A stretch of 64,000 bases of DNA from Centroscyllium fabricii (GCA_051313645.2 JBNRSN020000001.1:588256001-588320000), one strand, 5' to 3'; positions 25,749-56,582 are shown, counted from the stretch's first letter. Notes: generated by a model from the sequence alone, not told the origin. A program made the numbers and translations.

Positions 25749-26489
25749 CAGGTTGAGCACCGTTAATCCGGCACGGGTGGGACCAGGCCCGTGCCGGGGA
25801 AGTGAAAATCCCGAATGATTGAAGCTTCGGCAAGCGCATACGTGGTCCATTCAAAATGGCTGCTGCGAAAGGCCAGCGGCCATTTTGAGTGGTCTGCGCA
25901 TGCGCTTATCATTCAGTGAGGCTGGCTCGGGGAGGCTTGGTAAGGCCCGGCTCGGGACGGCAAAGCAAAGCCCGGCTCGGGAAGCCCCAGCCCGGCTCGG
26001 GAAGGCTCGGGTAAGGCGAAGCGAGGCCCGGCTCGGTACGGCGAAGTGAGGCCCGGCTAGCCCCAGCCTGGCTCGGTAAGGCGAAGCGAGGCCCAGCTCG
26101 CGAAGCCCTAGCCTGGCTCGGGAAGGCGAGGCCCGGCTCGGTAAGGCGAGGCCCGGCTCGGTAAGGCGAGGCCCGGCTCGGTAAGGCGAGGCCCGGCTCG
26201 GTAAGGCGAGGCCCGGCTCTGGAAGCCCCGGCCCGGATCGGTAAGGCGAGGCTCGGGAAGGCCCAGCAGGGGCTCGTTTGGCAGCGCATGCGCAGATCAT
26301 TAAAAACTTTGCAGCGGCCATTGTGAATGATCTGCGCATGCGCGCGCCGTTCGGCGACGCATGCAGATCATTCACTGAAGCATCAATCACGGCGGCCATT
26401 TTGCGCATGCGCAGGGCAGTCGGGGCAATTTGTTCCGGAAGACTGAAGCTGCCGGCTTATCGGGTAACGGATCAACGGTGCACAACCTG
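25749..26489 (+). mobile_element. CAGGTTGAGCACC-family MITE, copy 2, with an internal 20-bp minisatellite (ggcccggctcggtaaggcga)n at about 25920-26265
   Basis: TIR caggttgagcaccgtt / aacggtgcacaacctg, TA flanks, tandem array visible. Confidence 0.9.
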
Positions 26490-26895
26490 TAGCACTCTTG
26501 CATGAGAGTCAGAAGGTTTGGGTTCAAGTCCTACTCCAGAAACTTGAGCACATAACACAGGCTGACACTCCAGTGCAGTGTTGAGGGAGTGCTGTTTTTC
26601 AGATGGGAGATTAAACAGAGGCCCTCTCAAGTGGATGTAAAAGATCTCATGGCACTATTCGAAGTAGGTTTGGAGAGTTCTCCCGGTGCCCTGGCTGAAT
26701 ATTTCCCTCTTAGCCAGCATCACTCAAACAGATTATCTTGTCCTTATTGTTGTCTGTGGGGCTTTGCGGTGTGAAAACTGGTTACTATGTTTTCCTACAT
26801 TACAACAGTGACTACCCTTGAAAAGTACTTCATTGACAGTGAAGCACTTTGGGATGTCCTGAGGTCATGAAAGGAGAAAAATAAATGCAAGCTCT
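26490..26895 (+). mobile_element. DeuSINE-like (SacSINE1-like) tRNA SINE
   Basis: B box gggttcaagtcc, Deu-like core gtggatgtaaaagatctcatggcacta, and an L2-like tail gtgaagcactttgggatgtcctgagg. Confidence 0.65.
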
Positions 26896-27268
26896 TTCAA
26901 GTTCTTGCTAAACAGCATTGCTTATTTTACTTTGCTTTGTAGGTTTGTCCTGTTAACGACAGTCAGAATGCTTTTCTAGAGGTTCATTGCCCAGTACGGA
27001 AAGGTACCAATACCATAAACTCCTGGGAAACCCAAGAGATCATAAAAACTGGCCCTGGCTAGCTTAGGCAGCTTAGAATACACGATGAAGTCAGTCTAAT
27101 CCAAAGTACTCCTAAGGAGGCTAGTGCTTTTGCCCCCAAAACTTTGAAGAGTGATCTTATTCAAGGAATGAAGAACCTTTACCTAGGTTCCTCACACTTG
27201 ATACAACTAAGGAACAGATACCATGTAGCACCAACTAAATGCTGGGACATTTTCACGTGCATGCTTAG

Positions 27269-28124
27269 CAGGTTGAGCACCGTTAATCGGGCAACCGAAA
27301 AGCCGGCAACTTTAGTCGTCCGGCACAAATCGCCGACTGCCCTGCGCATGCGCAAAATGGCTGCTGCGATCGAGGCTTCGGCGAATGATCTGCGCATGCG
27401 CTCGCCGTTCAGCGGCGCATGCGCAAATCATTCGCCTAAGCCTCGATCGCGGTGCCCATTTTGCGCATGTGCAGGGCAGTCGGGGCGAACACAGACAGGA
27501 GAGGACAGGCGAGAGAGAGAGAGCAGCAGAGCCCACTCCAGCCTTTGATCCCGGCACATTCACACTCACCGTCCCGATGGCTTCAGGAGACGCCGACCCC
27601 ATGGAAGGCAGCAGTGACTCGGACTTGGGAGGCAGAGCTCCCCGGCGCCTTGGAGTCGCTGGGATACGAGGAGGAGAAGGAGGAGGCCTTCTCCGACCTG
27701 TCGGATGAGGAGCAGATGCCCCACATCGGTGTGTACCGCGCGCCCTCAACCGCGCTTGAAACGGGGACAGGTCCCGCCTAGCTTGCTTTGATTTTGGGGG
27801 GGGGGGGGCAGGAGGTTTGTGATTGGTGGCATGGCCTGTCAATCCCGTGGCTTTGGTGGGGGGGGGGGGGAAAGAGAGGAGCCTTGTGATTGGTGAAGCA
27901 GCCTGTCAATCCTGCGGCTAGGGTGCCAGGAGGCTTGTGATTGGTGAAGCAGCCTGTCAATCCTGTGGCAAGGAGAGGGAGGCGATTTTGTGATTGCAAT
28001 ATTATGCGCATGCGCGCGGCCATTTTGAATGGTGCGCGTACTGGCCAACTTCATTCTTCCGTTTTTTTCGCAAAACCGGCCCGGGCCTAGTCCCGCCCTT
28101 GCCGTTATAACGGTGCTCAACCTG
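27269..28124 (-). mobile_element. CAGGTTGAGCACC-family MITE, copy 3 (opposite orientation), with gene-like cargo
   Basis: Same TIR and subterminal blocks as copies 2, 4, 5 and 6, but inverted. Confidence 0.85.
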
Positions 28125-28932
28125 TACAAGAAATATCTCTTTCTTCAGCACTTTAGGCTAGCGAATGAACAACATTGTCCAAGTGCCATTAATTTGGGAG
28201 AAAAGGATGCTTCATTTTGATTTGAACTGAACTGCTGTGTGTTCTGTCTGTCGTTGTCATTTACAGCTGAATGCTTTAAGATCGCTGTGATAGACAATGC
28301 GGGCAGCTTAAGAAATAGCAAGAGGAGGTAAAATGAGTATTTTTATAAACAAAGTCAAATATGGCTTTCATGCACAGCAAAACAAACCAGTTCAAAATCA
28401 AGACAAACAATTGACAGCAGAGAGAGATATGTATTCAAGATAAACATTAACTTGCACTTCCATCACATGGGGACAAATTGTAATTCAGATAGAAAGGAAG
28501 ATAATTTGTCAAAAAATGGCTAGTTACTTAGTCAACATCTGTTGAAAGCAACCGATTTCAGCAGGGAGATTCAAAATGTGCACTTCATGTACAGTACTAT
28601 AATATGACTATTATCTTAGCCGTCTTAAAATCTTTTGCATTGTGCATGTTGAAATGTCACATACAATGTGTCTTTAGAGATCACTTTGATGGAAATTCCA
28701 ACCCTTAGGAGCTCATTATTTATATTCCAGAGCTGCAGAGTGAGACATGCACGGGTGTCTGATTGCCGGAACTGCCGTATCATGGGCTCTCTGAAGATTG
28801 CCTGTGCCATTTTAAGTTTAGCCAACAATGACTATTGATACCAAGAATAATTGTTATTTTCATTTCAGTAAAAGGTTGCATTATATCTTACACAATCATA
28901 AATTAAAAACCACTTAAATATTCATTACTCAC

Positions 28933-29005
28933 CCAGTCCTAATAGATCGATGGTGGATTGTGCCACCTTCTGAGGGCTCATTCTGGTGTCCAATTGATCT
29001 TTCTT
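28933..29005 (-). CDS. SMAP1: Internal exon of an ArfGAP SMAP-family gene (SMAP1-like): KKDQLDTRMSPQKVAQSTIDLLGL(D)
   Basis: Acceptor cttgcttttaatggcacag, donor G|gtgagt, 73 nt (phase 0 to 1). From memory, the peptide resembles human SMAP1 KKDQQLEPKKSTSPKKAAEPTVDLLGLD. Neighbouring exons were not found in the window and SMAP2 is not excluded. Confidence 0.55.
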
Positions 29006-29279
29006 CTGTGCCATTAAAAGCAAGTATGAATTAATACAGCTCATTAATATAATCCAATTTCAACAATTCTTTAAGATAAACATTTGTAGTCACTGCAAGA
29101 ATATATTCTCTCATTTTGGTCTCTTTATAGCCACATGTTATCCCCTCTTTTTGCTCTCCAACACATTATGTTCAACACTTTCCTGACTGACTGCACAACA
29201 GTTCTCAAATTCTCCTTGCTCAGTCAGAGGAATGAACCCACAACCTACCATTAAGGTGCAGAGTGCATTGATACAATAA

Positions 29280-29760
29280 ATTTGCATTTGTACAGCACCT
29301 TTAACATAGAAAAAATCTTGTGCTTTAAGAGGAGTAACAATGGGCCCAGGCCCTGATCCCAAAAGGGGATGTTTGCAGAGGTAAGCAAAAGCATGGTAAA
29401 TTGTGGAAGGTCCATCTAATTGACCATGCTTGCGGTCACCTCTGCAAGTAACAGAGCAAGTGAGGTGGGATGGCTTAGGGAGAGTTCCCAAGAGTCAGGT
29501 TACAATAGATGAAAGCTCTACAACCAACTGTGGAACAAAGGAAGGCTTGGATGGACAGGAGACCAGTTAGAGGAATAAAATGGGTATAATGGTTGAAGAG
29601 GTCACAGAGATAAGCTGAGGCGATACCATGGAAGGATGAGTAGATAAGCATAAAGATTTTGAAAATCAAATCAATCTGTTTGGGGATAGGCAGTTAATGT
29701 ATGTTGACGAGGATTGGAGTATTGGGCAAGCATTACATTATTAGTATAGGACAGTATGGG
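29280..29760 (-). mobile_element. Decayed L2 3' fragment
   Basis: IFKIFMLIYSSFHGIASAYLCDL and an L2-type tail. Confidence 0.6.
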
Positions 29761-29799
29761 GTGGTGGAATTTTGGATAAGTTGTAATTTATGGAATAGC

Positions 29800-29925
29800 A
29801 AAATACTGTGGATGCTGGAAATCTGAAATACAGAAAATGCTGGAAATACTCACCAGGCCAGGCAGCATCCGTGGAGAGAGAAACAGTTAACGTTTCAGGT
29901 CTGGGACCCTTCATCAGAACTGGAA
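29800..29925 (-). mobile_element. Penelope-like terminal fragment with a hammerhead-like core
   Basis: Minus strand reads ttCTGATGAagggtcccagacctGAAAcgttaactgtttctctctccacggatgctgcc. Confidence 0.65.
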
Positions 29926-30744
29926 AAAGGTGGCCTTTGGGAAGCCAGTGAGGAGGGTGAGAGAGAAATCAAGTCAAGAGGTATGAACGTATGGATTAGG
30001 GATTTGGCTGTGGTGGGCTTGAGGAAGGGGTGGAGGTGTTGCAGTGGTTGTAGTAGTATAGGTGATGATGGTGGCAGTCAGAACATGAGGTTTGATATAT
30101 TAATACTACAAACTGCTGGGCTGCCACAAGCTCATCACCACTGTGTGGATTGCTAAAGTCAGGCTCAACTCTTATTTTATGTTTTAAACCATAAATTTAG
30201 TGAAAAAAACTGTGACCTTATTTATATGTCAATGATGTCCTTGAAGATCAACAATCAACCTAACTGTTGTTGCAATGCTATGTACAAATATTAATGGAAA
30301 AATAGAAGCACCTATGACCATAAATTAAATCCTTTCAGATCTGAGAAGAATATTTAAAACCCCAGTGAAATTCTTTCATGCACTCTCAATTTTAAAAGGA
30401 AATTTTAAGCCCATTTAAAAAAAGTCAGTAATTCATAAACCAAATCCTGTGCCAAGAATACAGAACCATGCGTTGCTGTGGAAGAACATTCCAGAAAGTA
30501 ACACTGCACAAGGACATCCCATTTTTGGTAATAATCAACAGTGATGTGATGACAGCATGTAGTCTGTTTTGGTTCGTAACTGTACACAGAATATCAATGG
30601 ATAAAACACACAAGGTGGATCGAACAGATTGGTGCAGAGATCATGGAGCAGGAATTCAGGCTCAACCTGCCCAAATTCATAAAACTGCTGGTTTTTTTTA
30701 CTCCCAGTAGTGCAATTTGGCAATACCCATCTTTTGAAGTGCAA

Positions 30745-32130
30745 AATCACCTGTTCAAAAAAAAGGGTCAGAGACATAAACCAGGTAACTACAAGCCTGT
30801 CAGCCGAACTTAGAGATAATAAACTGGGACAAAATTAATTGTTTATTGGAAAAGTTAATCTAGCACAGCCAACGTGAATTTATTAAAGGCAAATTGTGTC
30901 TGACAAACTTCTTTGAGTCCTTCGATCAAAATAACAAAGACGGTTGATGAAGGTAGTGCAGTTATGTTGTGTTTATGGATGTTCAAAAGCTGTTTGATAG
31001 AGTGCCACATAATAGACTTGTTAGTGAGATTGAAGCCCTTGGGATTAAAGAGGCAGTGGCAGCGTGGATATGAAATTGGCCAAGAGACAAAAAGCCGAGA
31101 GTACTGCTGAATGGTTCTTTTTCAGACTTGGAGGGGGGTGTGGGGTGCAAGTATACAGTGAAGTCCCCCCGTGGTCGGGGTATTCGGACCACTGCTCTTT
31201 TTGACATATTAATGACACGGGCTCATTTCAAAGTTAGCGGATGACAATGCTTGGCAATGTAATAAACAGTGAGGAGGATAGTAACATACTTCAGGAGGAC
31301 AGACAGACTGGTGAAATAGGCAGACACGTGACAGATGACATTTAATGCAGAGAAGAGTGAGGTGATGCATTTTGAAAGAAAATCTGAGGAGAGGCAATAT
31401 AAACTAAATGGTACAATTTTAAACATGGTGCAGGAAGAGAGACCCGAGGGGTTTATGTATAATAATCTTTGATGGTGGCAGGACAAGTTGAGAAGGCTGT
31501 TAAACAAGCACACGGAATCCATGGCTTTATAAGTAAAGGCAGAGTACAAAACCCAAGGAAGTTATGCCAAACCTTCAGAAATCACTGGTTAGACCACAGC
31601 TGGAATACTGTAGCCAATTCTGGGCACCACACTTTAGGAAGAATGTCAAGGCCTAGGAGAAGGAGCAGAGGATATTTACCAGAATGGTACCAGAGATGAG
31701 GGAATTGAGCTGTGTGGAGAGATTATAGAAACTGGGATTGTTCTAATTCGAGCAGAGACGGTTAAGGGGAGATTAAAAAGAGAGATAGGTGTTTAAAATT
31801 ATGATGGGTTTTAATAGAGTAAATAGGGAGAAACTGGTTCCACAAGCAGTAGGGTGGGTAATCACAGGATAAAGTTTTAAGATAATTGGCAAAAAAAAAA
31901 TCCAGGGGGAGCAGAGGAGAAATATTTTTACACAGCGAATTATGATCTGAAAGGGTGAGGCAGCAGGTTCAATAGTAACATTCAAAAGGGAATTAGATAT
32001 ACACTTGAAAAGTAGAAATTTGCAGGGATATGGGGGTAGAGCAGCAGGGGGTGATTAATTGGATAGCTCTTTCAGACAGCAGGCACAGACACAATGGGCC
32101 AAATGACCGTTTTCTATGCTGTATGATTTT
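30745..32130 (+). mobile_element. Decayed CR1 LINE
   Basis: Degenerate PLFKKG...PGNYKPVS, SKLADD and QFWAPHFRK motifs plus a CR1-type tail. Confidence 0.8.
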
Positions 32131-32323
32131 GATCACCTGTGAATACTGTGAATTTGTACACAAACACTGATGAGCACTTCAAATACTTCAGCCACCTTTT
32201 GTCAGATTTTAGACTTTTATCTCTGATTTGCTTGTCTCGTCTTTAATTAGTTGGTTAATGTCGCAATGGAAAACAAACTCCGATTGTGGAAGGTCAGGTT
32301 TGAGTTATTAACCAAGGTAATTA

Positions 32324-33456
32324 CAGGTTGTGTACCATTAATTCGGCACGGGCAGGACTAGGCCTGCGCCGGTCTACCGAAAAAGCCGGGAGAATGAAGC
32401 CGGCCAGTGCGCGCACCATTCAAAATGGCCGCGCGCATGCGCACAACATTGAAAATGGCTGCCGGAAGTTTTGATCATCTGCAGTGTAGCTGCAGCCCAA
32501 GTCCATACATCATGGTAAACGGCAGTGGCAGAGATCAGCTGGTCAAGCCAGGCCGTGGATGGGGCCTGGGGGTCACTTTAACAACACGAACGTGTTGGCG
32601 CTCATGTGGTGGCAATGTTCGAAACCCTTTCTTTTTGAAGACAGGACAGGACGATTTAAATCATACGACCTCAAGCCCTGGTTACAAAAAGGGGTCCCGG
32701 AGTGATTATGGACGTGCGGAGGAATTTTAGCAAAAGTAAAAAATCAGAGGAGACATTGATTGGCGAGAACAAGCGGAGGAAAGCCCCCCAAATCCCGACT
32801 GGGTGTGGGCGGCGGTTCGCGTCTCTCCATTGGGTGACTCTCTCCCTGGTCTCTGGGTCATTGAGGGGGGTTTACTGATCTGTGAGTCAGTCGTGTTTAA
32901 CAAACAAAAAAAAAGAATCTTCTTTGTTGATGATCGCTACAGCGAGCGAACAGGAGAAAAAGAGCGTAAAATGCAGAGACAATTTTATGGCCTAACATTC
33001 CTTCAGGGTCAGGCAATTTATCAAATCCCCTGTTCTGGTTTCAATTACGCAGCTATCGAGAAAATAACCTATTTTAGCAGGTTAATTTGCCTCAGTTGGG
33101 AATATAGGGGTTTTGACTTTAATACATCATCTCGCATACAGTCTATCCCTTTCCCAGTGTAAGCCTTTTACAAAGTATTAAAAGTAATTGTATTAAAAGT
33201 ATTGCAGTGTAGCTGCAGCCGCCCAGAAACCGCCGTGCGCGGCAGATCCTTACCGTTCGGCGGCGCACGAATGAGGAGGCAAAGGTCAGTCCAGCCTCCG
33301 GCGGCCGTTTTGAATGATCTGCGCATGCGCTCGCCGGCGCATGCGCAGATCATTCGCGGCGGCCATTTTGCACATATGCAGGACAGTCGGGACAATTTGT
33401 TCCGGAAGACTGAAGCTGCCGGCTTATCGGGTAACGGATTAACGGTGCACAACCTG
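32324..33456 (+). mobile_element. CAGGTTGAGCACC-family MITE, copy 4, with about 720 bp of unique cargo
   Basis: TIR caggttgtgtaccattaat / attaacggtgcacaacctg, TA flanks. The right arm is nearly identical to copy 2. Confidence 0.85.
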
Positions 33457-33964
33457 TAGTAACATAATTCTGCCCCATTTTCACAAATGGAGATAAGAGG
33501 CGACTGAGGATTTTAGCCAATAGTTTTCACCTGAAAATGTTTTACTGATACCAAGCAATTGATGCTAACCAATGAAGAGAAAGGGAAACTGATGAATATA
33601 AATATTAGCCAGATTTAGAAAAACCATGTAATACACATTTAGGAGTCCCCCAGAAAGGGAAAGAAGTCTGGTGAATACAAAAAGTTCTCTTTTCACCTTC
33701 ATTATTTTCTTTGCTCACATGAAAGCAATGACTCCTTCCCAGAGTCAGGTTCCACAGGAAAATGTTGCGCTCTCATACCTCACCCAAGCGGGCCTAATTC
33801 AAGATGAGCAATTATGGTGAATGTAACATGGCTATTCGACAGTAGAATGCATCACAGCCACATCCAAACTGCTGTGACCAGAAGCTGGCACCTGTTCTTC
33901 CAGCAGCCATCACCGAATACTAATCAGGAGCAGGAATGTTGGCTGATTTAACCCTAACCCAGGG

Positions 33965-34540
33965 CAAGCACTGGAGAGGTACCACCAACACTGCCTCTGC
34001 AAGATCCTGCAAATCCATTGGCAGGATAGGTGCACCAACATCAGTGTTCTTGCTCAGGCCAACATCCCCAGCATCGAAGCTTTGACCATGCTCAATCAGC
34101 TCCGATGGATGGGTCACATTGTCCGCATGCCCGATACGAGACTCCTAAAACAAGCGCTCTACTCGGAGCTCCAGCACCGCAGGAGAGCCCCAGGTGGGCA
34201 GAGGAAATGCTTCAAGGACACCCCCGAAACCTCCTTGAAAAAGTGTAACATCCCCACCGACACCTGGGAATCCCTGGCCCAAGACCGCACAAAGTGGAGG
34301 AGAAGCATCCGGGAAGGCGCCGAACACCTCGCGTCTCTTTTCCGGGAGCAAGCGGAAGCCAAGCGCAAACAGCGGAAGGAGCGCACGTCAACCGAAGCAC
34401 CCCACCCACCCGCCCCTTCAACCACCGTCTGCCCCACCTGTGACAGAGACTGTAGGTCCCGCATTGGACTCATCGGTCACCTGCGATCTCATTTTTAATG
34501 TGGAAGCAAGTCATCCTCGATTCAGAGGGACTGCCTAAGA
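33965..34540 (+). mobile_element. RTE-clade LINE 3' fragment
   Basis: QLRWMGHIVRMPDTRLLKQALYSEL...GGQRKCFKD...CPTCDRDCRSRIGLIGHLRSH. Confidence 0.9.
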
Positions 34541-35123
34541 ACAACCACCCAGGGCACTCAGGCCAATTAGAACTATCCTAATGTCACCCAGACTGAGATC
34601 AGCTAACTCGGCACAAACAAGGACGGCCCTGGTTTGTATGAACTCTCACGGAATTCTAAATTTTAATTTTGACATGTAAAAACAATTAATTTTTAGCTCT
34701 GACCAAAATCTATTAAAAAAAATTACTTAAAAGTTGAATCAAAACAGGATCAAAGTATTTATTCCATCACTGTTATTTTGAATGCACAAATTAAAGGAGG
34801 AGCATTAGTGGTGTACCGCAGTAACCATGGCCCGCTTGATTTCTCAAAAGGTTTAAAACTGTGTGTGAAGGCTATTCAACAATTGAAATGAACAAGAATA
34901 AAACCCCACAGGTTTGGGTTCTCCTTTAAAGATGTAATCTGACAAAAATGTTAGCATGTGTTAGATAATTATTCTTTTTCACTGGTAAAATGTGGGTAGT
35001 TGATGTTTTAACAAGAAAAAAAGTGACCAAAATCATATTCTGCAAAAACCGACCCGGAGTCCACCAGAACAAATTTTAGCAAGATCCAGCTGTTGTTACA
35101 CTTCCTTGCTTCACTAAACCTCA

Positions 35124-35936
35124 AGCCCTGAAATCCTGCACCAGCGATTTGCTCAGACTTAATGGGCCGGTTTTTCCGATGGCCCCGGGGCCCAACGCGT
35201 GCGCACGGAGCGGGTACTCACGCGTGCGGCCCTTGGAATTGCAGGTAGATGGCATTTCCCGTGCATACGTGAGATACCTGCAATTCCGAAGGCGGCCGGT
35301 TGGGGGGGGGGGGGCGCGTTCGGGAGCTGAAGCGCGTTGGCCTGCGCACCAGGAGGTGCGCAGTGCACTTCCGATTTTTTCCTGAGTTTTTCATCAGGGT
35401 AAGTATCGGGAAAGTTAAGGCTGAAAATATCAGCCGTAACGACCCCTTTTTAGCCGGTAAGTCTTTATTTTATTGAATTGAAGTTTTTTGGTTTTTTTTA
35501 AACAGGTATTTACTTTTTTTTAAACTTTAAAGACAGGTAACTATTTCATTAGGGCAGTTAATATTTTTTCAAATTTTTTATTTTTTGTTAATAGGTAATT
35601 TATACTAATTATAGGAATGTTAAAAAATGTGGTGTTTTTATTAAATGTATTTCACTGTTTACTGTGTTTTTGGGGCTCTTCCATTTCATAACTTTGACAG
35701 ATCTCTCTGTCAAAGTTATGAATGGAGGATTATTTCCAGTGATTGGCTCCCCGCGGACCGCGTGGAGCTTCCCCATTAACTCCGACACCGAGTTGCCTCA
35801 GCGCAGCGCGTGGGGCCTGGAGCAGTACCTGGAATCGGGATTTCAAATCCCAGAAGAGGACAATGGCAGGTGCGCTCCGTAAGTGTGGGTTGGAGGCTTG
35901 CACTCGCAGGAAGCCTCCAACCCGAATTTCTGGGCC
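35124..35936. mobile_element. Probable Harbinger-type MITE with internal hairpins
   Basis: Imperfect TIR agccctgaaat / atttctgggcc. Perfect stems cataactttgacaga/tctgtcaaagttatg and gggttggaggctt/aagcctccaaccc. Confidence 0.5.
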
Positions 35937-36499
35937 AATATACAAACAGCTTCAAGCTCCGAGTTTGTTAATGGGCCAGGCACTGAAGATGTGTATTAAA
36001 GCAAGACGAGCCAGTTTATGAAATGCTGTAGCTCACAGCTGACTTCAAATGGAGACAGAGAGAATCAATTCATTCACCCCAGACTTTCCCTATTCATGTT
36101 GGGAATAGCAGAAGATGGTCAGGTACATGGTTTTACTGATAGACCTACTCACGAATCATTGAATGGAGAAGTTAGAGGGATGGCCTTCCCACTTGTTGGG
36201 GAAAATAGGGGGGAAAAAAGACACTTCTTTAAAGAGGATACTTCCAGGTGCAGGCCTGTGCCTGAAACTGAAAGCCAAGATCCAGGAGGTCAGGTTTTGC
36301 CACTAGAATTTGTCTAGAAAGGGGAAAGCAAAAACAAAGTCAGCCCACGAAAGGAGATAAATGAAAACTAAGCAGTTGGTGCCATTTATTTCCAACTGTT
36401 ACTCTGTTCATTTCCTGTCTGCACTGGAGAAGCACATGTGAGGGCATATGCAAAAGATGGGATATCCAGTTCAGATCATGGGGGGCTGGCCTTAAGAAC

Positions 36500-39880: not shown

Positions 39881-40039
39881 CATCAAGGTCATGAAAAGTA
39901 AACTAGAAGATGAACTAAATCATAATGTAGTGATGAGGTGACATCAAGCTTGGATTTTTAAAGCTTGAAGGAAGAAGCTTGGGTAGGAGAGAAAATAGGA
40001 AATGATGGGTTTAGGTTAGGAGAGAGTGTAGTGATAATG

Positions 40040-41020: not shown

Positions 41021-41506
41021 CAGGTCTGACATCATTAATCCAGCACGGTCGGGACCGGGACGGTGCCGGATTTTTGAAAAATCCAAACGGTTGAAGCTTC
41101 GGGGAGCGCATGTGCAGACCATTTTCAGTTGCCTGCTCATGCGCTCGAAGCATCAATCGTTCTGGGAGAGGCCCGGGCATGCGCAGCAGCCATATTACGC
41201 ATGCGCAGATCAGTCGGGGAGAGGCCCGGGAACGCAGCCATTTTGTGCATGTGCAGGGCAGTCGGGGAGAGGCCTGGGCATGCGCAGCCATATTGCGCAT
41301 GCGCAGACCAATCGGGGAGGGGCCCGGGCATGCGCAGCCAAGCGCGGCGGTCATTTTGCGCATGCGCACACCAGTCGGGGAGAGGCCTGGGCATGCGCAG
41401 CCAAGCGCGGTGGCCATTTTGCGCATGCGCACACCAGTTGGCCGGATTCGTTCCGGACGACTGAAGTTGCCGTATTAACGTGTCCGGATTAACGGTGCTC
41501 AACCTG
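41021..41506 (+). mobile_element. CAGGTTGAGCACC-family MITE, copy 5; interior is a 50-60-bp tandem array rich in GCGCATGCGC
   Basis: TA-caggtctgacatcattaatcc ... ggattaacggtgctcaacctg-TA, with about 5 units of cggggagaggcc.gggcatgcgcagcca...gcgcatgcgca. Confidence 0.85.
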
Positions 41507-43981: not shown

Positions 43982-44134
43982 ATGCAAGAAGTCACACAAC
44001 ACCAGATTATAGTCCAACAGTTTTATTTTAAATCACAAGTGATTTAAAATAAAACTGTTGGGACTATAATCTGGTGTTGTGTGACTTCTTGCATTTGTCC
44101 ACCCCAGTCCAACACCGGCACCTCCACATCATGG
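43982..44134 (+). mobile_element. Penelope terminal fragment in fold-back configuration, inserted in gag
   Basis: Matches 23490-23580. Inverted arms of about 55 bp; 12-bp direct repeat ctaaaagtactg at 43970-43981 and 44135-44146. Confidence 0.85.
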
Positions 44135-45557
44135 CTAAAAGTACTGGGCAGAGACTGTAATTCCAAGGCTGTGTCTGCCACCGTGCACACAGAGGAGCTG
44201 ATCCGTGAAACCTTCATCGCAGGCCTCAGATCGAATTACATTAGGCAGAGGCTGTTCAAGAAAGAGAAGCTAGACTTAAAGCAAGCAACGGACATAGCGT
44301 TCCTCTGGGCCATATCTAGCGATCGCGCGGAGTCTTACCCCTCAGGCCACGCGGCCCACCATGCCTCGTGCGCACCGTGGGGGCAGCCACCTTGGAAGCC
44401 ATCTTCGCCTCCCGGGTTTCAGGCCAGCGCAGCACCACCAGAGCCCCAGCCTCCACCCAGGAGCCCCACTACTGCCGCGATGCATCGGGGCCTGAAATCT
44501 TACCTCTGCGGTCAGGACAGGCACTCGAAGCTTTTGTGCCCAGCGAAAGGCACCACCTGTTTCAGATGCGGGAAGAAAGGCACTTCGGCAAGGTCTGCAG
44601 AGGGAACCCCCGCCTCCAGCTCCTCCACCGCCGCGTGCGCGCAGTGGGGGCAGCCATCTTGGTCGCCATCTTGCCCCGACTCTTCCAGCTCCCCCACCGC
44701 TGCGCGCGCGCCATGGGGGCAACCATCTTGGACACCATCTTGCCCCGACTCTTCCAGCTCCCCCACCGTTGCGCGCGCGCACCGTGGGGGCAACCATCTT
44801 GAACACCATCTTGTCCCAACTCCACACACCTCCAGGACCCAATGGTGGGCATGATTACAGTGGATCAGTCCAGGCCACACCCACTGTCCAAATCGATGAT
44901 GGACATAAGAGTCAACGGGAACAATTGTTAAATGCCTGATTGACTGCGGGAGCACCGAAAGCTTCATCCACCCCAGTCTGGTGAAGAAACTCTCACGAAT
45001 AGTAGTCCCTACACAGGGCAAAATCGCCATGGCGGATAAAACACCCACCTCACATATTACGGGGTTCTGCATGGTTATGCTGTCAGTCAAGGGCAATGAT
45101 TATAAAGATTTTAAACTACTGGTAATGCCAGACCTGTGTGAGAGCGTGATCTTGGGTCTGGATTTTCAGTGCCACCACCAAAGTATCACGCTCACCTCCG
45201 GTGGGTCCCAGCCACCCCTCTGTGTGCGGTCTGGCTACCCTGAAGGTCAAGCTGCCCTGCCTGTTCGCCAATCTCGCTCCGAACTGTCGCCCCATAGCGA
45301 CCAAGAGCAGGCGGTACAGTCGGGAGGACAGACGGTTCATTGTGGCGGAAGTTGAAAGACTACGGCGGGAGGGTATCATTGAATGCAGTACCAGCCCATG
45401 GCGCGCCCAGCTGGTAGCAGTCAAGGGGAGCGAAAAGAACGGATGGTGATAGATTATAGCCAGACGGTTAACCTACACACCCAGCTGGATGCCTACCCCC
45501 TGCCCTGCATATCAGATATGGTCATCGAAATCGCCCAATACCGGGTGTTTTCCACCA

Positions 45558-47064
45558 CGTAGAGTGAACGCACGGAAGGCCGCGGGTCCTGATGGCATCC
45601 CCGGCCGGGCACTCAAAGAATGTGCCGACCAACTGGCTGAAGTCTTCACTGACATCTTCAACCTGTCACTGGCGAAGGCAGCTGTCCCTACCTGCTTCAA
45701 GACCGCCACCATCATCCCTGTGCCCAAGAAAACGGCCGTGACGTGCCTGAACGACTACCGCCCTGTTGCACTTACACCCATTATCATGAAGTGTTTCGAG
45801 CGGCTGGTCCTGGCCCACATCAAAGCCAGCATCCCCGCCGCCCTGGACCAATACCAGTTCGCCTACCGTGGGAACAGATCTACAGAAGATGCTATCACTA
45901 CGGCTCTTCACTCTGCATTAACCACCTGGATAGCAAAGATACGTATATCAGAATGCTGTTTATTGACTACAGCTCAGCATTCAACACCATCGTCCCCAGC
46001 AAATTATCTACCAAACTCCTCACCCTCGGCCTGAACACCTCCCTCTGCAACTGGACCCTGGACTTCCTAACCAACAGACCACAGTCTGTGAAGTTAGGCA
46101 ACCTCACCTCCCCCCCCCACCTTACCCTGAACACGGGGGCCCCACAAGGTTGTGTGCTCAGCCCCCTCCTCTACTCCCTCTTCACTCACGACTGTGTGGC
46201 TGTCCATGGCTCCAACACGATCATCAAGTTTGCGGATGACACCACGGTGGTTGGCCAGATCACCAACAACGATGAGTCAGCCTACAGGGATGAGATCCAG
46301 CGCCTTGTGGGTTGGTGTGCCGACAACAACCTGGCACTGAACACCAAGAAAACCAAGGAGATCATAGTGGACTTCCGGAGGACTGGAAGCAGAAGACACC
46401 CCCCCATCTTCATCCAAGGGGCTGAGTTGGAAAGGGTGTCCAGCTTCAAGTTCCTCGGGGTCCACATCTCGGAAGATCTCTCCTGGTCACTAAACACCTC
46501 CTCTCTGGTTAAGAAGGCCCAACAGCGCCTCTACTTCCTAAGGAAGCTGAAGAAAGCCAGGCTGTCATCCGGCATCCTCTCCAACTTCTACCGCTGCACA
46601 ATCGAAAGCATACTGACAAGCTGCATCATAGTCTGGTATGGAAATTGCACCATCTCGGACCGGAAGACCCTGCAGCGGGTAGTCAAAACTGCCCAACGAA
46701 TTACCGGTACCCAGCTACCGTCAATGGAAAGCATCCACCTCAAACGCTGCCTACGGAGGTCTCTGAACATTATTAAAGACCCCACACACCCCAGCCACAG
46801 TCTGTTCGCCCCCCTGCCCTCCGGGAGACGCTACAGAGCAATTTGCACCCGCACGACTAGATTTCAGAACAGCTTCTTCCCCAGGGCTGTCAGCCTACTG
46901 AACTCTGAAAATAAACTCCGGTACCTGCACGCCTGATAATGTACTTTACTGTATGCAATTTGCATGTAATTTATTTGCACTACTCTCGGGAGAGTCGAGT
47001 CTTCGTCTCGTTGTATTGTACTAGTACTCTGCAATGACAATAAAACTTGAATTGAATTGAATTG
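45558..47064 (+). mobile_element. Rex1/Babar-clade LINE, 5'-truncated, inserted in the Gypsy RT
   Basis: [94 protein letters not shown] and (ttgaa)n tail. The Gypsy reading ST|IDLKSAYHQL resumes after it. Confidence 0.92.
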
Positions 47065-50000
47065 ATTGACCTGAAATCGGCATACCACCAGCTCTCCATT
47101 AGGCCGGAGGACCGCCCTATCACGAGGGATGTGTGCCAGCACCCAGGGAGACAGGCTACAGGCCCTGCACAATGACCCCTGCCACCCGGGAATCACCCAG
47201 CTATTCCACCTGATAAAATCCCGTAACCTGCCCTATTCCATTGAAGAGGTCCATGACCAGGAACTGCCGCATCGGCGCGGAGTGCAAGCCCTGATTTCAC
47301 AGGCCCAACCGAGCCCACCTGATCAAAGCTACACGGCCATTTGAGCACCTAAGCTTAGACTTCAAGGGACCCCTCCCCTCCACCAATCGCAATGTGTACT
47401 TCCTCAATATCGTGGACGAGTACTCCCACTTCCCATTAGCCTACCCCTACCCAGACATGACCAGTGCCACGGTCATCAAGTGCCTCGGCAGCCTGTTTTG
47501 CATGTTCGGCATGCCAAGCTGCATCCACTGACAGAGGGGCGTCGTTTATGAGCAACGAGCTACGCCAATAACTGCTGTCAAAAGGGATAGCCACGAGTCG
47601 GACCACGAGTTATAATCCCCGGGGTACTGGGCAAGTGGAGAGGGAGAACGCAAAAGTGTGGAAGGCAGTCACCTTAGCGTTAAGGCCCAGAGACCTCCCC
47701 ATCTCCCGCTGGCAGGAGGTAATCCTGGATGTACTCCACTCGATCAGGTTGCTCCTGTGCACAGCGACCAATACCACCCCTCACGAGAAGATGTTTGTGT
47801 TTCCCCGCAAGTCAACTTCAGGGGTGTCCCTACCCTCGTGGCTCTCCACCCCAGGATCTGTCCCACTACGGCAGCATGTGAGAGGCCACAAAACGGACCC
47901 CCTGGTAGAGGCAGTACACCGACTGCACACGAACCCACAGTACGCGTACGTCAGGCACGCCGATGGGCGTGATAGCACTGTGTCCATGAAGGACCTCGCT
48001 CCGGCGGGAGATGACGGCATCCCGCCCACACCACCCCCAGAAGTACCTGCCACACCCTCAGCACATGGGTATGCCCAGGAGGGCACCACAGACACCCGGC
48101 CTGAACCCGAGGTACTGTTGCTCCGATTGGGGCGGACTATCACACCCCCGGTCAGACTCAATTTTTAAGAAGGAGTGAATGAGATGAAATATGCATGTTC
48201 ATCAGGCTGTGCTTTTCACCTGGACTTGCCTGTGCTAGGAATGTATGTACCGCCCACCTTTGTCTATTGTATATGTCTCTTGTTATGCGTAGGACTCCAG
48301 AGCGGCTTGAGCCATTCGACCTGGAGAACTCAGTGTGGGAACACGCACCACAGTTCTTAGTTATTAAAAGCCTACCTTTAAGTGCTTAAACCTCTCGCTT
48401 GGATTATTGATGGCCTATCACCGTCCCCATTCCAAAGACTTTGCTTGGCAGAGAACTTTGCCAGACTTCCCAGAACTTTGCCCACATCAAGATTGAGATG
48501 GTGTGCGAGGGTAGAAATCACACTAAGCGCTGTTGATCTGTTCTCCAGAAAGTATTGGTCTCCCAACATGCTTTGGGTCCAGCATGTATGCTGCAGCATG
48601 AGCGGCTTGACACAAAATTCTTGACTCGTCTGCATGAATTGAACAATTGCCTTCTCCTCTGCTTTGAGCAGCAGGGATGTGGGTAGGTCAATGCTGATTT
48701 GTTCTTTTAAATCAGCAAAAAGCCTGAGAGCATCTGACAAGACAGCGTCATCTCCTTCAATCTGAGCAATTGCAGATGCTACTGGTGAGAGTAGTTTAAG
48801 GCTGCTAACCACTCTCTCGCCAAACACATCATCCAGCAGTATTTTCTTGCTGGTGGTTGGTTTCCATATCCCCAGACTGGGATATTGCCATTTCTTGCAG
48901 TGACTCCTTACCCTCCAGAAGGCTGTTACCCTCCAGAAGGCTGTTGTACACTATGACAACACCACCCCATCTAGTGTTGTTGGGCAGCTTCAGTGTGGTG
49001 TTCTTTTTCTTTGTCATTTGCTTGGAGTTGTAGGTTGCTGCAACTACCTGTTTTCCCGACATACTTAACAACTTGCTTGGCTCTCTTGTACTGTGCTTCC
49101 ATGGTTCTCAAACCCATGATGTCCTTGAGGAGCAGGTTAAGCCCATGAGCTGCGCACCCAATAGACGTAATAGGCCTCCTCCACTGGAGCCCAAGCAGCC
49201 TTCATATTCGCAGCATTGTCAGTAACTACTGCAAAGACCTTTTGTGATCCAAGACCGTTGATGACCGCTTTCAGCTCATCAGCAATGTATGTGCCTGTGT
49301 GTCTGTTGTCCTTCGTGTCTGTGCTCTTGAACACGGAGAGGAGTGGAGACGATGTAGTTTATGATGCCCTCCCCTCGTACATTTGACCACCCATCTAAGA
49401 TAACTGCAACACAATCTGCCATCTCTGATTGTTTCTTTGAGCTTTCCTTGGTCTCTGTTATACTCAGCCTCCAGCAAATAAGTAGACAAAGCATGTCTGG
49501 TGGGAGGACAGTATGCAGGGCGAATAACATTGAAAAATCTCTTCCAGTACACATTGGCTGTGAGCATGAGGGGTGAGCCTGTTGCATATATAGCTCGAGC
49601 AAGGCACTCATCTGTATTCTGCTAGCTATGGCTTTCCATTGTATCAAAGAACCTTGCAAGTGGGCCAGGAATTGCTGATGCTGAATGAGAACCATCATCT
49701 TCTTGAATGGAAGCAAAGGAACTCTGGGCTGACTGCTGTGAGCTTTGAGTGAAGTTGCTGCATTTGGGTAAATGCTGCTGCATCTTTGCGGCATTCTTTA
49801 CATATGGCTTTGTGACGTATCGTCAATATCTCTTAATAAAAGACTGGACGAGTAGTTACCGTAACTATAGGCTTTTAATAACTTACTTTGGAGCTACCCT
49901 CCGAACGAACATCAGAACAGAATGAGGGAGCATCGGTCAGTCCTCACCTATAAAGGCCTCACCTGGGGGAGGAGTTAAAGGTGTGGCTGACCTGGCTCCA

Positions 50001-50107
50001 CGACAGTATTACAGGCTGTGTATCACACACAGCCAATTGTTGGCAACAATAATTACAGTGGTAATATATACAATAAGCGTTACCACATTCACCCCTTCTT
50101 GAAAATT

Positions 50108-53100
50108 TTAAGTCCAGTGGGGTGAATGGACCGAGCAGTTCAATATGAGCTTGTCCGGCGGTCGTGTCAGCCTGGAGGACTGCCGGAGTTCCGGTGATGG
50201 TTCCTTGTGTTCCGTGCTGCTCGAGTCCGGTGGTGGTGACAGCGGCTCTGGTGCCGTGGTTTCAGATGTTGGTGGTCTCAAATGGTCCGAGCCATCGGAG
50301 TGGTGGTCTTGGGCTGGCCACGGCTGGGGCTCTGGAAACCTCGGAGGCCATCGTAGATGTAGAGGGTGTTCTAGATACTGTGGCTGGGCGGGCTGCTGCC
50401 CGACCAGGGGCTCCGCTGCGGTGCTTCCTGCGGGCGCCAGGTCCCTGATGGATATGGTGTCCTCGCGCCTGTCCGGGAACTGTACAAATGCGTATTGCGG
50501 GTTCGCATGCAGGAGCTGCACCTTGTCCACCAGGGGGTCGGTCTTGTGGCCATGGACGTGTCTCCTAAGGAAGACCGGCCCCGGTGTCGTGAGCCATGGA
50601 GGAAGAGCTGTCCCCGAAGTCGATTTCCTGGGGAAGGAAAAAATCAAGTCATGAGGGGTGGCGTTAGTGGCCGTACACAGGAGAGAGCGTATTGAATGCA
50701 GCGCGTCTGGGAGGACTGCCTGCCAATGGGCCACTGGAAGGCCTCTGGACTTCAGAGCCAGGGTGACCGCCTTCCAGATGATCCCATTCTCCCTTTCTAC
50801 CTGGCCGTTCCCCCGGGGGTTATAACTGGTCGTTCTGCTCGTGGCAACCCCTTTCTGGAGCAGAAACTGACGCAGTTCATCGCTCATGAACGATGACCCC
50901 CCCGGTCGTTATGGATGTAGCTGGGGAGACCGAAGATGGCGAACAGCGTGGTGAAGTGTTTTATCACCGTTGCGCTCGTCATATCTGCGCAGGGGAAGGC
51001 GAAGGGGAAGCGGGAGAACTCATCTACGACCGTGAGGAAGTATGAGTTGCGGTCGGTGGTGGGGAGGGGGCCTTTGAAGTCCACGCTGAGACGTTCAAAG
51101 GGGCGGGTGGCCTTGATGAGGTGCACCGTGTCTGGCCGGAAAAATTGGAGTTTGCACTCGGCGCAAACAGGGCACTCTCGGGTCATAGCCTTGATCTCCG
51201 TGATGGAGTAGGGGAGGCTACGGGATCTAACGAAGTGGGCGAGTCTGGTGACACCCGGGTGGCAAAGGCCGTCGTGGAGGTCCTTCAGTCGGTCTAGCTG
51301 GGCACTGGCGCACGTTCCCCTGGACAGTGCGTCCGGGGGTTCATTGAGTTTACCTGGTCGGTAAAGAATGTCGTACTCGTAAGTCGAGAGTTCGATCCGC
51401 CACCGCAGGATCTTATTCTTGATCTTACCCTTTTGTTTATTATTAAACATAAACGCCACCGACCGTTGGTCGGTGAGAAGGGTAAAACGCTTACCGGCCA
51501 GGTAATGACGCCAGTAGCGCACGGCCTCCACGATGGCCTGGGCCTCCTTTTCCACTGCAGAGTGGCGAGTTTCGGGTCCCTGTAGGGTGCGGGAGAAAAA
51601 CGCTACGGGCCTGCCTGCCTGATTCAGGGTGGCAGCAAGGGTAAAGTCCGAAGCGTCACTCTCCACTTGGAAGGGAATGGATTCATCAACAGCGAGCATG
51701 GTCGCCTTGATGATGTCTTCCTTTATCCGGGCGAATGCCGTTTGGGCTTCTACCGAAAGGGGGAAGACGGCAGCCTTGAGGAGTGGTCTAGCCTTGTCCG
51801 CGAACTGTGGGACCCATTGTGCGTAATAGGAGAAAAATCCTAGGCATCTCCTCAAGGCTTTGGGGTTGTGAGGTAGGGGCAGTTCTTGAAGGGGGCGCAT
51901 ACGCTGTGGGTCGGGGCCGAGGACCCCGTTCTCCACCACGTATCCGAGGCTGGCGAGCCGGTCTGTATTAAAGACACATTTGTCTTTGTTATACGTGAGG
52001 TCCAGCTTATCCACCGTGTCAAGGAATTTGGCCAGATTGGCATCGTGGTCCTGCTGGTCGTGGCCGCAGATGGTTACGTTGTCCAGGTAAGGGAAAGTGG
52101 CCCGCAACTCGTTCTGGTCAACCATGCGGTCCATCTCCCGTTGGAACACTGACACTCCGTTGGTCACGCCGAAGGGGACCCGGAGGAAGTGGTGGAGCCG
52201 ACCGTTCGCCTCGAAGGCGGTGTACGGGCGGTCGGCTTTCCGGATCGGGAGTTGGTGATACGCCGACTTAAGGTCGATCGTGGAGAACACCTTATATTGG
52301 CCGATCTGATTGACCATTTCCGAGATGCGGGGGAGGGGGTAGGCGTCGAGCCCGGTGTAGCTGTTGATAGTCTGGCTGTAATCGATAACCAGCCGCTGTT
52401 TCTCGCCAGACTTCACCACTACTACCTGGGCCCGCCAGGGGCTGGTGCTGGCTTCAATTATCCCCTCCTTCAGCATACGCCCGACCTCCGACCTGATAAA
52501 CGTGCGATCCCCCACACTGTACCGCCGACTCTTGGTAGCAATAGGTTTGCACTTGGGGTCGAGGTTGGCGAACAGTGAGGGGGGGTCAATTTTCAGGGTG
52601 GAGAGGCCGCAGGCCGGGCTCCGCTTTGGGAAGGGACTGTCCCGGCTACTGACGGTGAGGGGGGGCAAGGTCCCGCCGAACTCCATTGTCACGCTCTTGA
52701 GGTGGCACTGGAAATCCAGACCTAGTAAGGCTGGGGCACACAACTGCTTGAGGGTGTACAATTTAAAATTATGGTACACGCACCCCTTGACTGAGAGCGT
52801 GACGGAGCAGTAGCCGGTGACGTCCGCGGTGTGGGACTGTGAAGCAAGGGAGACTTGGTAGTTCGTGGGCAGGATCTGCAGTCCGCAGCGCTGCACTGTA
52901 TCGGGGTGCACAAAACTCTCCGTGCTTCCAGTGTCAAATAGGCAATCGATAATATGGTCGTTTATTTTAATTGGCATTATCGAATTCGACAGAGTGTGTG
53001 GCCTGTCCTGGTCCACTCTGGGTATGGCTGAGGCCGACGTGTACTTTTGTGTGTGGGGGCCCCCTGCTGGTTGGGGCTGTACACAAAATGGCGGCGCTCC

Positions 53101-54340
53101 TGGCTCGCACATGGTGGGGCCTTGGAGACAAAATGGCGGCGCCCCTGGCTCGCACATGGTGGGGCCCTGGAGACAAAATGGCGGCGCCGAGGGGTCGCAC
53201 ATGGCGGGCCGCTGGGGACGAGATGGCTGCGCCCGTGGTTCGCACGCGGCTGACCGCTGTGAGCGCACTGGCAGCGCCCGTGGTTCGCACGCAGCGGGCC
53301 GCGGTGACTGGGTTGGCGGTGCCCGTGGTTCGCACGCAGCGAGCCGCGGTGGTTGGGTTGGCGGTGCCCGTGATTCGCACGCAGCCGGCCGCGTTGGGTC
53401 TGCTGCTGGCGTTGGGGGGTCGCGCTTGGCCGGCCTTTGCCGCATCGGGGTGGGAGATGGGGGCGCTTTCCTTCTATCCCCGGACCGTCGCTGGATCGCG
53501 CTGCTATTGCAGCTTACCTGAGGTCTGTCGGAGCTTTCACAGGCTGCGCTGTTGTACCTGGAGTTGGGCGCTGCTGGTGCTGATCTGCAGGCCTTTGCAT
53601 AATGTCCCTTTTTGGAGCACCTCTCTCAGGTCGCGGTCCTTGCTGGGCATCTCGCTCGCGGGTGCAGTCCCTGGCCGCAGAAATAGCACCGTTTGTCCTT
53701 TGCGGCTGTCGCAGCCATCGTGGGGGGTTTCGACCCATTGTGGTGCTGCCCAGGCCTGGGCCCGTTGTGGCGCGGCCCACATGTTTTAGGCCTGCGGGTT
53801 TGTGCCGCTGTACGCCTGCAGTTTATTGCGTGCTCCTTCAACGGAGTTAACTATGGCGATCGCCTCTTCAAGAGTCAAAGAGTCTTTTTCGAGCAGCCAC
53901 TGGCGGGCTTCCACGCACCTCAGGCCAGTTACATACGCGTCTCGGACAAGGAGGTTCGCCTCCTCTTCTGCTGTCCAGGCTTGGCAGCCACAGACCCGTA
54001 CCAGGGCCTGGAGCGCTTGCTCAACCTATTCATTGGTCTCACCAGGTAGTTGTGGTCTGGTCGCGAGCACATGTCTGGCGTAGACCAAATGGACCGGGCG
54101 CTCGTAGCATTTCCTCAGCTTTTCCACTGCCCCTGGGTAGGTTTTGGCGTCTCGGATGAGGGAGAATACTCGGCTGGAGATCCTAGACCGGAGAACCTGT
54201 AACTTGTTCCCGTCGGTTGTAGCCTTGGCGGCGTCCATGTAGGCCTCCAGGAGACCGAACCAGTGTTCAAACATGGTGGGGGCGGCTGGGTCCTGTGGAC
54301 TGATATCCAGCTTTTCTGGCTTTACTGCACCGCTCTCCAT
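50108..54340 (-). pseudogene. gag-pol of copy B (gag with two Cys/His knuckles, PR-RT-RNaseH-IN; a few stops and frameshifts; no chromodomain or env seen)
   Basis: ORF 50884-53445 has LFDTGSTES, IDLKSAYHQL, VPFGVTNG, YLDN, ESDASD, TDQRS, H..LCHPG..C..C and VDFKGPLP. The integrase continues in 50108-50887. Confidence 0.92.
53080..53395 (-). repeat. 39-bp coding minisatellite in the gag-protease linker (13-aa AACEPRAPP../TMCEPGAPPFC units)
   Basis: About 8 units visible in both DNA and protein. Confidence 0.85.
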
Positions 54341-54940
54341 TTCAAAATTTCTAAGTTATTAAAATTGACGTATCGTCAATATCTCTTAATAAAAGACTGG
54401 ACGAGTAGTTACCGTAACTATAGGCTTTTAATAACTTACTTTGGAGCTACCCTCCGAACGTACATCAGAACAGAATGAGGGAGCCTCGGTCAGTCCTCAC
54501 CTATAAAGGCCTCACCTGGGGAAGAGTTTAGAGGTGTGGCTGACCTGGCTCCACGACAGTATTACAGGCTGTGTATCACACACAGCCAATTGTTGGCAAC
54601 AATAATTACAGTGGTAATATATACAATATGGGTTACCACACTTTGTACACTGTTTGCACATGTACACAGTCTTTCCATCTTTAATGCCTGGGATAAAATG
54701 GTTCCACACATCAGACGGTAAACATGGCATCGTTCTATGCAGAGAAATAAAGGACATTCATCTCTGTCGAACTGCGGTCGATCAGCACGATTGCAACAAG
54801 GCGAGTACATTTTTGCTGATGCTCCATGTGATGGAAGCATGACCTGTACACACACAACGCTGCATCACCAATAGTGTATTATTTTGTATATTTTAAATTG
54901 AAGGACAACAGAGTTCAACAAGTGTAATACCCACTGGAAA

Positions 54941-55893
54941 TGTTATGTTATAAATATATTTATGTTAGGTTATAAATATATTTGTGTTACGTTATAAATC
55001 TTTAACTTAGACACTGTATTATCACTGTTATAAATCCCTGGGTTAAAGTTGCCAATGTGAAGGTACAGCATGAACTTTTAAAAACACAACATTGCAACAG
55101 TGGAGGCTGTGCAGTCTCCAGCAGCAACCCTAGGACAGCTGACCTGTTTTCGGTGGGAAAAACAGGCCCCATGTAACCCTCGGGGTTACATTTTGGGGGC
55201 GGAGACACATCGGCCAGAGCTGGAGACACAGACTGGAAGAGGAGAGGACAGGAGCTCTGAAGAGGGGGCTCAGGAGGCAAAGGGCTGCCGCATCCTGTCC
55301 CGGGCTTCCAAACTCGGCCGCCGCCCTTCTTATTAGTAGCACTGCATCCTGAACTGGCCGGCTGCAAGTCATCAGTACCGGGGGATCGTCATCTGAACCC
55401 AGATCTGCAAGGCGGAGGACTGGGGAGAGCTACTTGCCTCGTGCTGATGGGGATCTACTGGGAAAAGCTGCAGAGAGAGAGAGAGTCACCAACTCCAGCT
55501 GCTGCTGTGCGCTCTGCATCCAGAACTCAAAGTGGGACCCAGTGATCGTGAACAGAATTCAACGAAGGGGTTCGGAGTCATAAGTCTTGCCGACATGAGC
55601 TCCAACTTAAGCGCACCAACGAAAGAGGCCTGATACAGGTTGTGTTAATTGAACAAATTCTAGAGTGCACTCAAATTTGGACACAGGGACAGATTCTCCT
55701 TTGAATCCATGTAAATGGGGAATGTATGTTTATTATGTCTAGATTTGTTCCAATGCATACAAATGTCTAATTTAGTTCATTGACCTGTAATCATCTTATA
55801 CTGTTTGATGTTAAAACTATAAAGTAAGATCATTAGAATTAAGCCATTGTAGTAGTGACCTCCTTACTGGACCATAGAATACTGCATATAACA
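54941..55893. mobile_element. Possible solo LTR of an unrelated family inside the hAT 5' region
   Basis: tgttat...ataaca termini; flanks gaaa/gaga. Confidence 0.4.
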
Positions 55894-55913
55894 GAGACCA
55901 CATCTCACATATA

Positions 55914-56582
55914 CAGGTTGTGCACCTTTAATCCGCCACGGGCGGGACCAGGCCCGTGCCGGGAAACTGAAAAAACCGGGAGAACGAAGTTGGACACTGC
56001 GCATGCGCACAATTCAAAATGGCCACGCGCATGCGCACAACATTGGGATTGGCTGGCGCGCGCATGTGCAGATCAACCAATAATGGCCGCCGCAAAGTTT
56101 TTTGAGGGGCTCAGGCTTGTGTGGCGTTCCGTTTGCTTTTTACTGCTGTCGGGCAGCAGTGAAAGGCCGGTCTTGCGGGGGGGAAGGAGGGTTGTGCGGG
56201 CGCGGGTCGGGCCCAGTAGGTCCGCCTTCCCTCTCCATCGCCTTTTGGGTTGCTGCTGCCGCCGAGCCGGACTCAGGCTGACAGCTGTTGCCTAGTGACT
56301 GTCCGCCTCAGTCACGGGGCTCAGCTGTCGAGAAAATAACCGGCGGCCGTATTGAATTATCTGCGCATGCGCTAGACGTCCGGCGACGCATGCGCAGATC
56401 ATTCAAAACACCCGGCAGCCGTTTTGAATGATCTGCGCATGCGCTCGGCGCATGCGCAGATCATTCGCCGAAGCCGCGATGGCGGCTGCCATCTTGCGCA
56501 TGCGCAGTGTAGTCGGAGCAATTTGTGCCGGCAGACTGAAGCTGCCGGCTTTTCGGGACACGGATTTTCGGTGCACAACCTG
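55914..56582 (+). mobile_element. CAGGTTGAGCACC-family MITE, copy 6, with GC-rich cargo
   Basis: TA-caggttgtgcacc ... ggtgcacaacctg-TA, with family subterminal blocks. Confidence 0.88.

Follow-up and report, generated by a model that had tools for sequence, protein, structure and literature searches.

Non-autonomous derivatives of a pogo/Tigger-type transposon in Centroscyllium fabricii that probably took up and amplified host gene starts

Six elements with common ends

The stretch of DNA analyzed here, a 64-kb window of the 7.2-Gb Centroscyllium fabricii assembly (G000:C1:588256001-588320000), contains six transposable elements (TEs), which we number E1 to E6 in window order and orient by the reading direction of the partner transposase described below (Table 1). 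A reading of the sequence alone had taken them for a family of miniature inverted-repeat transposable elements (MITEs) of Tc1/mariner type that captures CpG-island DNA and has a different interior in every copy. All six lie where this sequence-only reading had placed them, and each has a 22-bp terminal inverted repeat (TIR) and two unlike subterminal arms, E1 and E3 being inverted relative to the other four. The hairpin arm that had been described for five copies is indeed present in five and degraded in E1. A TA dinucleotide adjoins 11 of the 12 ends in the window, the exception being the left end at 27269 (E3), and 119 of 128 element ends in a wider sample; the elements thus show the TA target-site duplication and the short terminal inverted repeats of the pogo superfamily. 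The arms also contain one GC-rich palindrome at about three to four copies per element, several hundred-fold above background; sites of this type presumably correspond to motifs such as NRF1, YY1, CRE, and RFX.

Genome-wide, the exact TA plus terminal repeat was matched 21,853 + 21,827 times (43,680 matches; control, 0). In 357 kb of off-target flanking DNA, arm profiles, which gave no match on reversed sequence, detected 14 hairpin arms; in 292 kb around transposase loci they detected another 14, and only five of the other arm. Element density is six per 64 kb in the window versus about one per 21-25 kb elsewhere. Scaled from arm density, the family comprises roughly 3x10^5 copies per genome, a figure that rests on small counts and for which the flanks of known copies are possibly enriched. 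The abundance inferred from the sequence alone is borne out; the density of about one copy per 10 kb noted there is that of the window. Arms and pieces of the E4 interior are also present on sequencing-run contigs from three other organisms.

Host gene starts between the element ends

Host DNA has been captured from three genes, each with a donor locus that is free of arms: a CNNM-family gene, CENPW, and a cytochrome b561-domain gene that we take to be CYB561D2 and call CYB561D2-like. Within the window, the right-hand cargo of E3 matches the DNA immediately before the start codon (C745:54412017) of the CNNM-family gene, which Pfam identifies at E = 5e-21. The donor begins at G000:C745:54411313, is identical to E3 at 59 of 67 bases in the non-array part and has no arm in about 9 kb. 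Of 23 boundary matches, 21 are element copies and the remaining two belong to this one locus. The CNNM promoter (L389:1371-2020 = G000:C745:54411313-54411962) consists of nine units, each with a CCAAT box and a TALE-type site, and resembles in this respect the TALE/NF-Y co-occupancy reported in zebrafish (PMC6023610). The left half of E3 is absent from the CNNM locus, including 6 kb upstream, and E3 is therefore chimeric. A CENP-A reading of E3 was unsupported and was dropped.

The other two cargos lie outside the window. CENPW cargo was present in three sampled elements and comprises a promoter piece, the 5' untranslated region (UTR) and most of coding exon 1. Exon 2 was located at C1:428969638 (E = 8e-9) by a search for the CENPW family, which also returned 19 weak matches, 18 of them element copies. 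The donor at C1:428958824-428958971 is exon 1, the captured portion of which is followed by a splice donor; it is located 10.7 kb upstream of exon 2, matches the solved CENP-W (E = 2e-4), differs by 7.6% from the majority of 13 copies, and has its nearest arms 16.6 kb upstream and 9.8 kb downstream. A 23-base piece of this cargo gave 10,122 genome matches at up to two mismatches (control, 0). At least five family copies are situated inside or just past the CENPW gene region (L239-L248). The CYB561D2-like cargo (5855 candidates; both arms at 17 of 20 loci) includes promoter, the whole of exon 1 and the start of the intron. Its donor (C1156:5726373-5725998) is followed by the middle and last exons and has no arm in 40 kb; its exon 1 is identical to that of a copy at 39 of 42 amino acids and the donor differs by 6.8% from the majority of eight copies, whereas the corresponding exon of a paralog is only 48% identical.

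Measured against the definition of Pack-TIRs, the E3, CENPW, and CYB561D2-like sub-families hold more than 100 bp of non-TE DNA between both ends, and the three donors represent parental copies free of a TIR element; E1, E2, E4, E5, and E6 have no such interior or none with a host match. As in multicopy Pack-TIRs, copies occupy distinct sites, with target duplications of their own and common breakpoints, although some E4 copies instead lie inside a larger repeat. CpG content was rejected as a test of capture because the background observed/expected ratio of 0.59 makes it weak evidence here.

The direction of transfer could in principle be the opposite, with the transposon having given promoter pieces to host genes (exaptation). 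The non-coding CNNM array is open to being read either way, but what the elements have in common with CENPW or the CYB561D2-like gene takes in the first coding exon of conserved genes and stops within that exon or directly behind it, and the donors bear no arm remnant, so that we regard such a reverse flow as highly improbable.

Once inside the elements, the cargo most likely decays neutrally, as a passenger, to judge from the pattern of change: differences in the two coding cargos are spread over the codon positions as 12/7/10 and 9/12/16, and the CENPW and CYB561D2-like donors are only two residues each from the copy majority, all of these being small numbers. Alternatively, selection might have maintained captured promoters, either because they act as regulatory elements dispersed over the genome or because they boost transposition. 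For bat Helitrons, a higher copy number of 5' captures than of other captures has been reported (Thomas et al. 2014, PMC4224331), and the palindromes in the arms would fit such a role; yet coding cargo is altered at all three codon positions and sub-families without foreign DNA are abundant as well, which makes selection unlikely.

A transposase-bearing partner with the same ends

The sequence-only reading had proposed a search for an autonomous partner with the same ends, and an element with a Tigger-type transposase was indeed found. It was reached by walking outward from the E6 interior via longer sub-families; 12 of the 20 stretches fetched were homologous, one of them only partially, and the first look yielded 256 candidates. 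Both arms and TA flanks are present in four copies, which are 4.1-5.2 kb long, and one further copy has an unbroken 593-amino-acid frame with the domains CENP-B_N, HTH_Tnp_Tc5, and DDE_1, the latter with a DDxD triad in DD32D spacing. The transposase presumably resembles JRK/Tigger4. Tc1/mariner proper, with DD34E or DD34D, does not apply, since the partner carries pogo domains and DD32D; of the earlier classification the abundant, TA-flanked IS630-Tc1-mariner group stands and the narrower assignment does not. The family belongs to the pogo superfamily and, within it, probably to Tigger; pogoR has the same domains. Gao et al. 2020 (PMC7386202) list DD32 spacing for the Tigger-derived JRK and CENPBD1, the same spacing as in the partner.

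Searches with DDE_1 and HTH_Tnp_Tc5 (150 scored of 1715 and 1017, 50 and 30 loci examined) yielded other pogo families with different ends. The partner is 45% and 34% identical to two other pogo families of this genome and 31% to a third. Three such families, two of them with long open frames of 558 and 618 amino acids from stop to stop, and one 510-amino-acid frame, which had no close copy in a comparison of 21 and may be a domesticated gene, were seen at L096, L102 (C967), L097, L098, L116-L145, and L101. The GC-rich segments that flank the partner's frame may be old host captures; the searches made for them found no arm-free donor.

Interiors mark sub-families

For an overview of the interiors, 98 distinct elements were sampled without selection by interior; elements with perfect ends and those from the first 37 Mb of contig C1 are overrepresented among them. 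A low-frequency interior was lacking in 20, was common to at least two sampled elements in 67, and was a singleton in 11. E1, E2, E5, and E6 have 8, 7, 11, and 16 relatives in this sample, E6 belonging to the commonest type (26 of 98). E3 and E4 have none there; genome-wide, however, their interiors gave 2112 and 1212 first-look candidates, a measure that is not a copy number, of which the 40 scored in each case were 94-95% and 88-94% identical (self excluded). The claim that every copy has a different interior thus holds within the window, where no two copies have a low-frequency interior in common, and fails genome-wide: each interior marks a sub-family, not a single copy. Likewise, of the three minisatellite and three unique promoter- or exon-like interiors that had been distinguished, the former are real (E1, E2, E5) and the latter (E3, E4, E6) are not unique.

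The interiors of E1, E2, and E5 are tandem expansions, in E5 of the arms' own module. Arrays of at least 100 bp were present in 45 of 103 rows, a few rows being counted in both orientations, and nested long terminal repeat (LTR) elements and palindromic repeats diversify the interiors further. The E4 interior segment occurs in some partner copies and is missing from one two-armed copy, so it must have been acquired or lost in the course of family evolution. Copies of E4 type on contigs C1233 and C1377 have common flanking DNA (L034-L037, L041, L044, L147-L151, L154-L156) and hence multiplied as parts of a larger repeat or duplication. In one sequencing run, whose RNA status is a guess, a diverged contig covers 32535-32913 and may be a donor or an old copy.

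Table 1. Elements of the family in the 64-kb window and parts of their interiors
Feature	Position	Strand	Description
E1	9795..10211	+	Non-autonomous, with degraded 3' arm; sub-family marked by a 32-bp minisatellite (9991-10134)
E2	25749..26489	-	Non-autonomous; 20/40-bp GC-rich tandem expansion at ~25924-26256, common to a sub-family
E3	27269..28124	+	Chimeric cargo-bearing copy; both terminal repeats bound 15/15 sub-family loci
E3 left cargo	27490..27726	-	Exon-like stretch; minus-strand end is a splice-donor-like site
E3 right cargo	27727..27975	+	Promoter captured from upstream of a CNNM-family gene; CCAAT-containing units: 3 (donor, 9)
E4	32324..33456	-	Internal-deletion derivative of partner; 32479-33456 is 89% identical to partner 5' end
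E4 interior	32497..33202	.	Mosaic of segments reused by other sub-families; 18-bp direct repeat on both sides
E5	41021..41506	-	Non-autonomous; interior 41164-41438 is a tandem amplification of arm module, no foreign DNA
E6	55914..56582	-	Internal-deletion derivative of partner; 55914-56327 is 83% identical to partner 3' end

Much of the family could pass for an ordinary MITE family whose interiors are deletion products of one autonomous element, minisatellites, and nested repeats: E4 and E6 map to the partner, and the arrays and nested LTR and palindromic repeats just mentioned fit the same picture. For these two interiors, this is the outcome that the sequence-only reading had itself named as refuting it. 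As a full account this explanation is refuted by three interiors that match arm-free multi-exon host genes and not the partner, and we give it little credence.

Further unique-looking interiors, several of them exon- or promoter-like, were found at L067:2519-2823, L157:1120-1560, L208:2786-3261, L169:4750-5185, L020:1126-1362, and L101:3334-3478. An E1-type sub-family (L153:2204-2345, L399:1370-1658; 1516 candidates) contains a MAM-domain-like coding stretch, one of only two weak Pfam matches (E = 0.017) among the 111 of 135 interior frames that were searched; its donor was not among 7 fetched of 68 family matches.

A further possibility is that cargo is taken up separately by every copy, through local filling of gaps once the copy has inserted. 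This is the main route of published animal Pack-TIRs (Tan et al. 2021, PMC8277862), and the 11 singleton interiors would agree with it. However, both rare interiors that were searched genome-wide proved to be sub-families (5855 and 1516 candidates), and the donors are on other contigs or far off, with no donor for any cargo in about 1.05 Mb of flanking DNA. Local capture is accordingly very unlikely, and the idea of one capture per copy gives way to rare capture followed by mass amplification.

Origin and spread of the captured DNA

The explanation that we consider probable is that E1 to E6 all descend, as non-autonomous forms, from a single Tigger transposon, certain lineages of which took up host gene starts and were then amplified by the partner. 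In the proposed course of events, the transposase would excise a copy and repair of the gap would begin on the sister copy and then continue on an ectopic template, in many cases an open promoter; the filled element, still with both arms, would be moved in trans by the partner transposase to thousands of sites, and later deletions, array growth, and further captures would create the network of sub-families. Mobilization in trans is suggested by the shared ends, and template switching during excision-gap repair is the likely mode of capture. The bias toward promoters may be real, either because open chromatin serves as template or because promoter-bearing copies stay accessible and hop more.

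Several observations weigh against this explanation or narrow it. Verified host cargo was present in 4 of the 98 sampled elements, a minority, and in the window only half of one interior (E3) was traced to a donor, so that the capture of promoter and first-exon DNA, borne out by three donors, applies to a minority of sub-families. For E4, the matches to five patterns, taken from boundaries or variants, numbered 12, 0, 1, 0, and 1, all inside elements; these patterns are estimated to miss a donor diverged by 7-10% about half the time, and the result does not amount to absence. For E6, the 14 examined of 1187 matches consisted of 13 in elements and one short displaced piece, all 20 examined of 57 matches in a second search were element-linked, and for its distal segment none of about 20 examined loci among 26 scored candidates was arm-free. 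The left half of E3 gave no protein match in three frames, its boundary not having been searched genome-wide; short protein queries are weak, as the known CYB561D2-like exon likewise found nothing. It could be that the partner's own sequence makes up the E4 and E6 interiors as well as the left-hand cargo of E3. Furthermore, the partner copy with the unbroken frame shows one arm in the 6.5 kb examined, while the frames of all four two-armed copies are interrupted. All three donors are gene starts, but they were found by recognizing gene starts, and the MAM-like cargo weakly resembles an internal exon. Finally, microhomology at the breakpoints extends to a few bases at most and singles out no particular repair route.

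A more far-reaching version is conceivable, although we hold it to be doubtful: transposase-bearing masters might collect host promoters on both sides of the frame, with motif-studded arms that bias capture to open promoters and keep copies mobile, thereby seeding tens of thousands of working promoter modules together with dated snapshots of ancestral gene starts.

Other repeats in the window

A 365-amino-acid frame at 12226-13323, which we assume to be akin to Harbinger-type transposases, is accompanied by clusters of short repeats, near 11733-11961 and near 14045-14104, which may represent its ends. An LTR retrotransposon with 275-bp direct repeats (97% identical) and a 913-amino-acid frame occupies 49813-54640, and a decayed relative of it lies near 44000-48200. 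Copies of a tRNA-headed short interspersed element (SINE), presumably of a type typical of sharks, are located at 3769-4171, 6205-6599, 17478-17874, and 21537-21812.

Comparison with known systems

Plant Pack-MULEs likewise carry GC-rich 5' gene fragments and chimeric cargos, but belong to another superfamily, with long terminal repeats, 9-bp duplications, and a low copy number per capture. The literature searched, in which subscription papers were mostly outside coverage and repeat databases were not included, contained no shark case of such capture.

In practical terms, work on CENPW, the CYB561D2-like gene, and the CNNM promoter can be misled by thousands of exon-1 fragments, whether in annotation, mapping, or primer design. 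With the cognate transposase identified, two questions can be put to the test in a vertebrate: the way in which host DNA is captured by cut-and-paste elements, and the reason for the preference for promoters and first exons.

The family agrees with pogo/Tigger elements in its TA duplication, short terminal repeats, CENP-B_N, HTH_Tnp_Tc5, and DDE_1 domains, and a D-D spacing within range; pogo elements are 1.2-5.2 kb long, and extra sequence on both sides of its frame places the partner near the upper limit of this range (Gao et al. 2020, PMC7386202). With multicopy animal Pack-TIRs it has in common host 5' sequence between TIR ends, a distant arm-free parent, and repeated transposition after capture. 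The corresponding survey reports four multicopy Pack-TIRs (1.4%) of about three to five copies, none in elephant shark, and a single-copy Pack-Tigger1 example; the present family differs in having thousands to 10^4 copies per capture, serially recombined cargos, and a transposase-bearing element with extra GC-rich segments (Tan et al. 2021, PMC8277862). It is a multicopy Pack-TIR system with a copy number far above published animal cases. Nearest in scale are bat Helitrons, with 12,382 copies carrying host DNA from 54 genes and 16 non-genic regions, again thousands of copies in a vertebrate and with promoters, 5' UTRs, and first exons in excess; those are rolling-circle and ours cut-and-paste elements, and their 12,382 copies in all compare with 10,122 matches for CENPW alone (Thomas et al. 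2014, PMC4224331). Published animal Pack-TIRs are nearly all single-copy accidents, whereas the Tigger family described here has multiplied captured gene starts to numbers like those of Helitrons.

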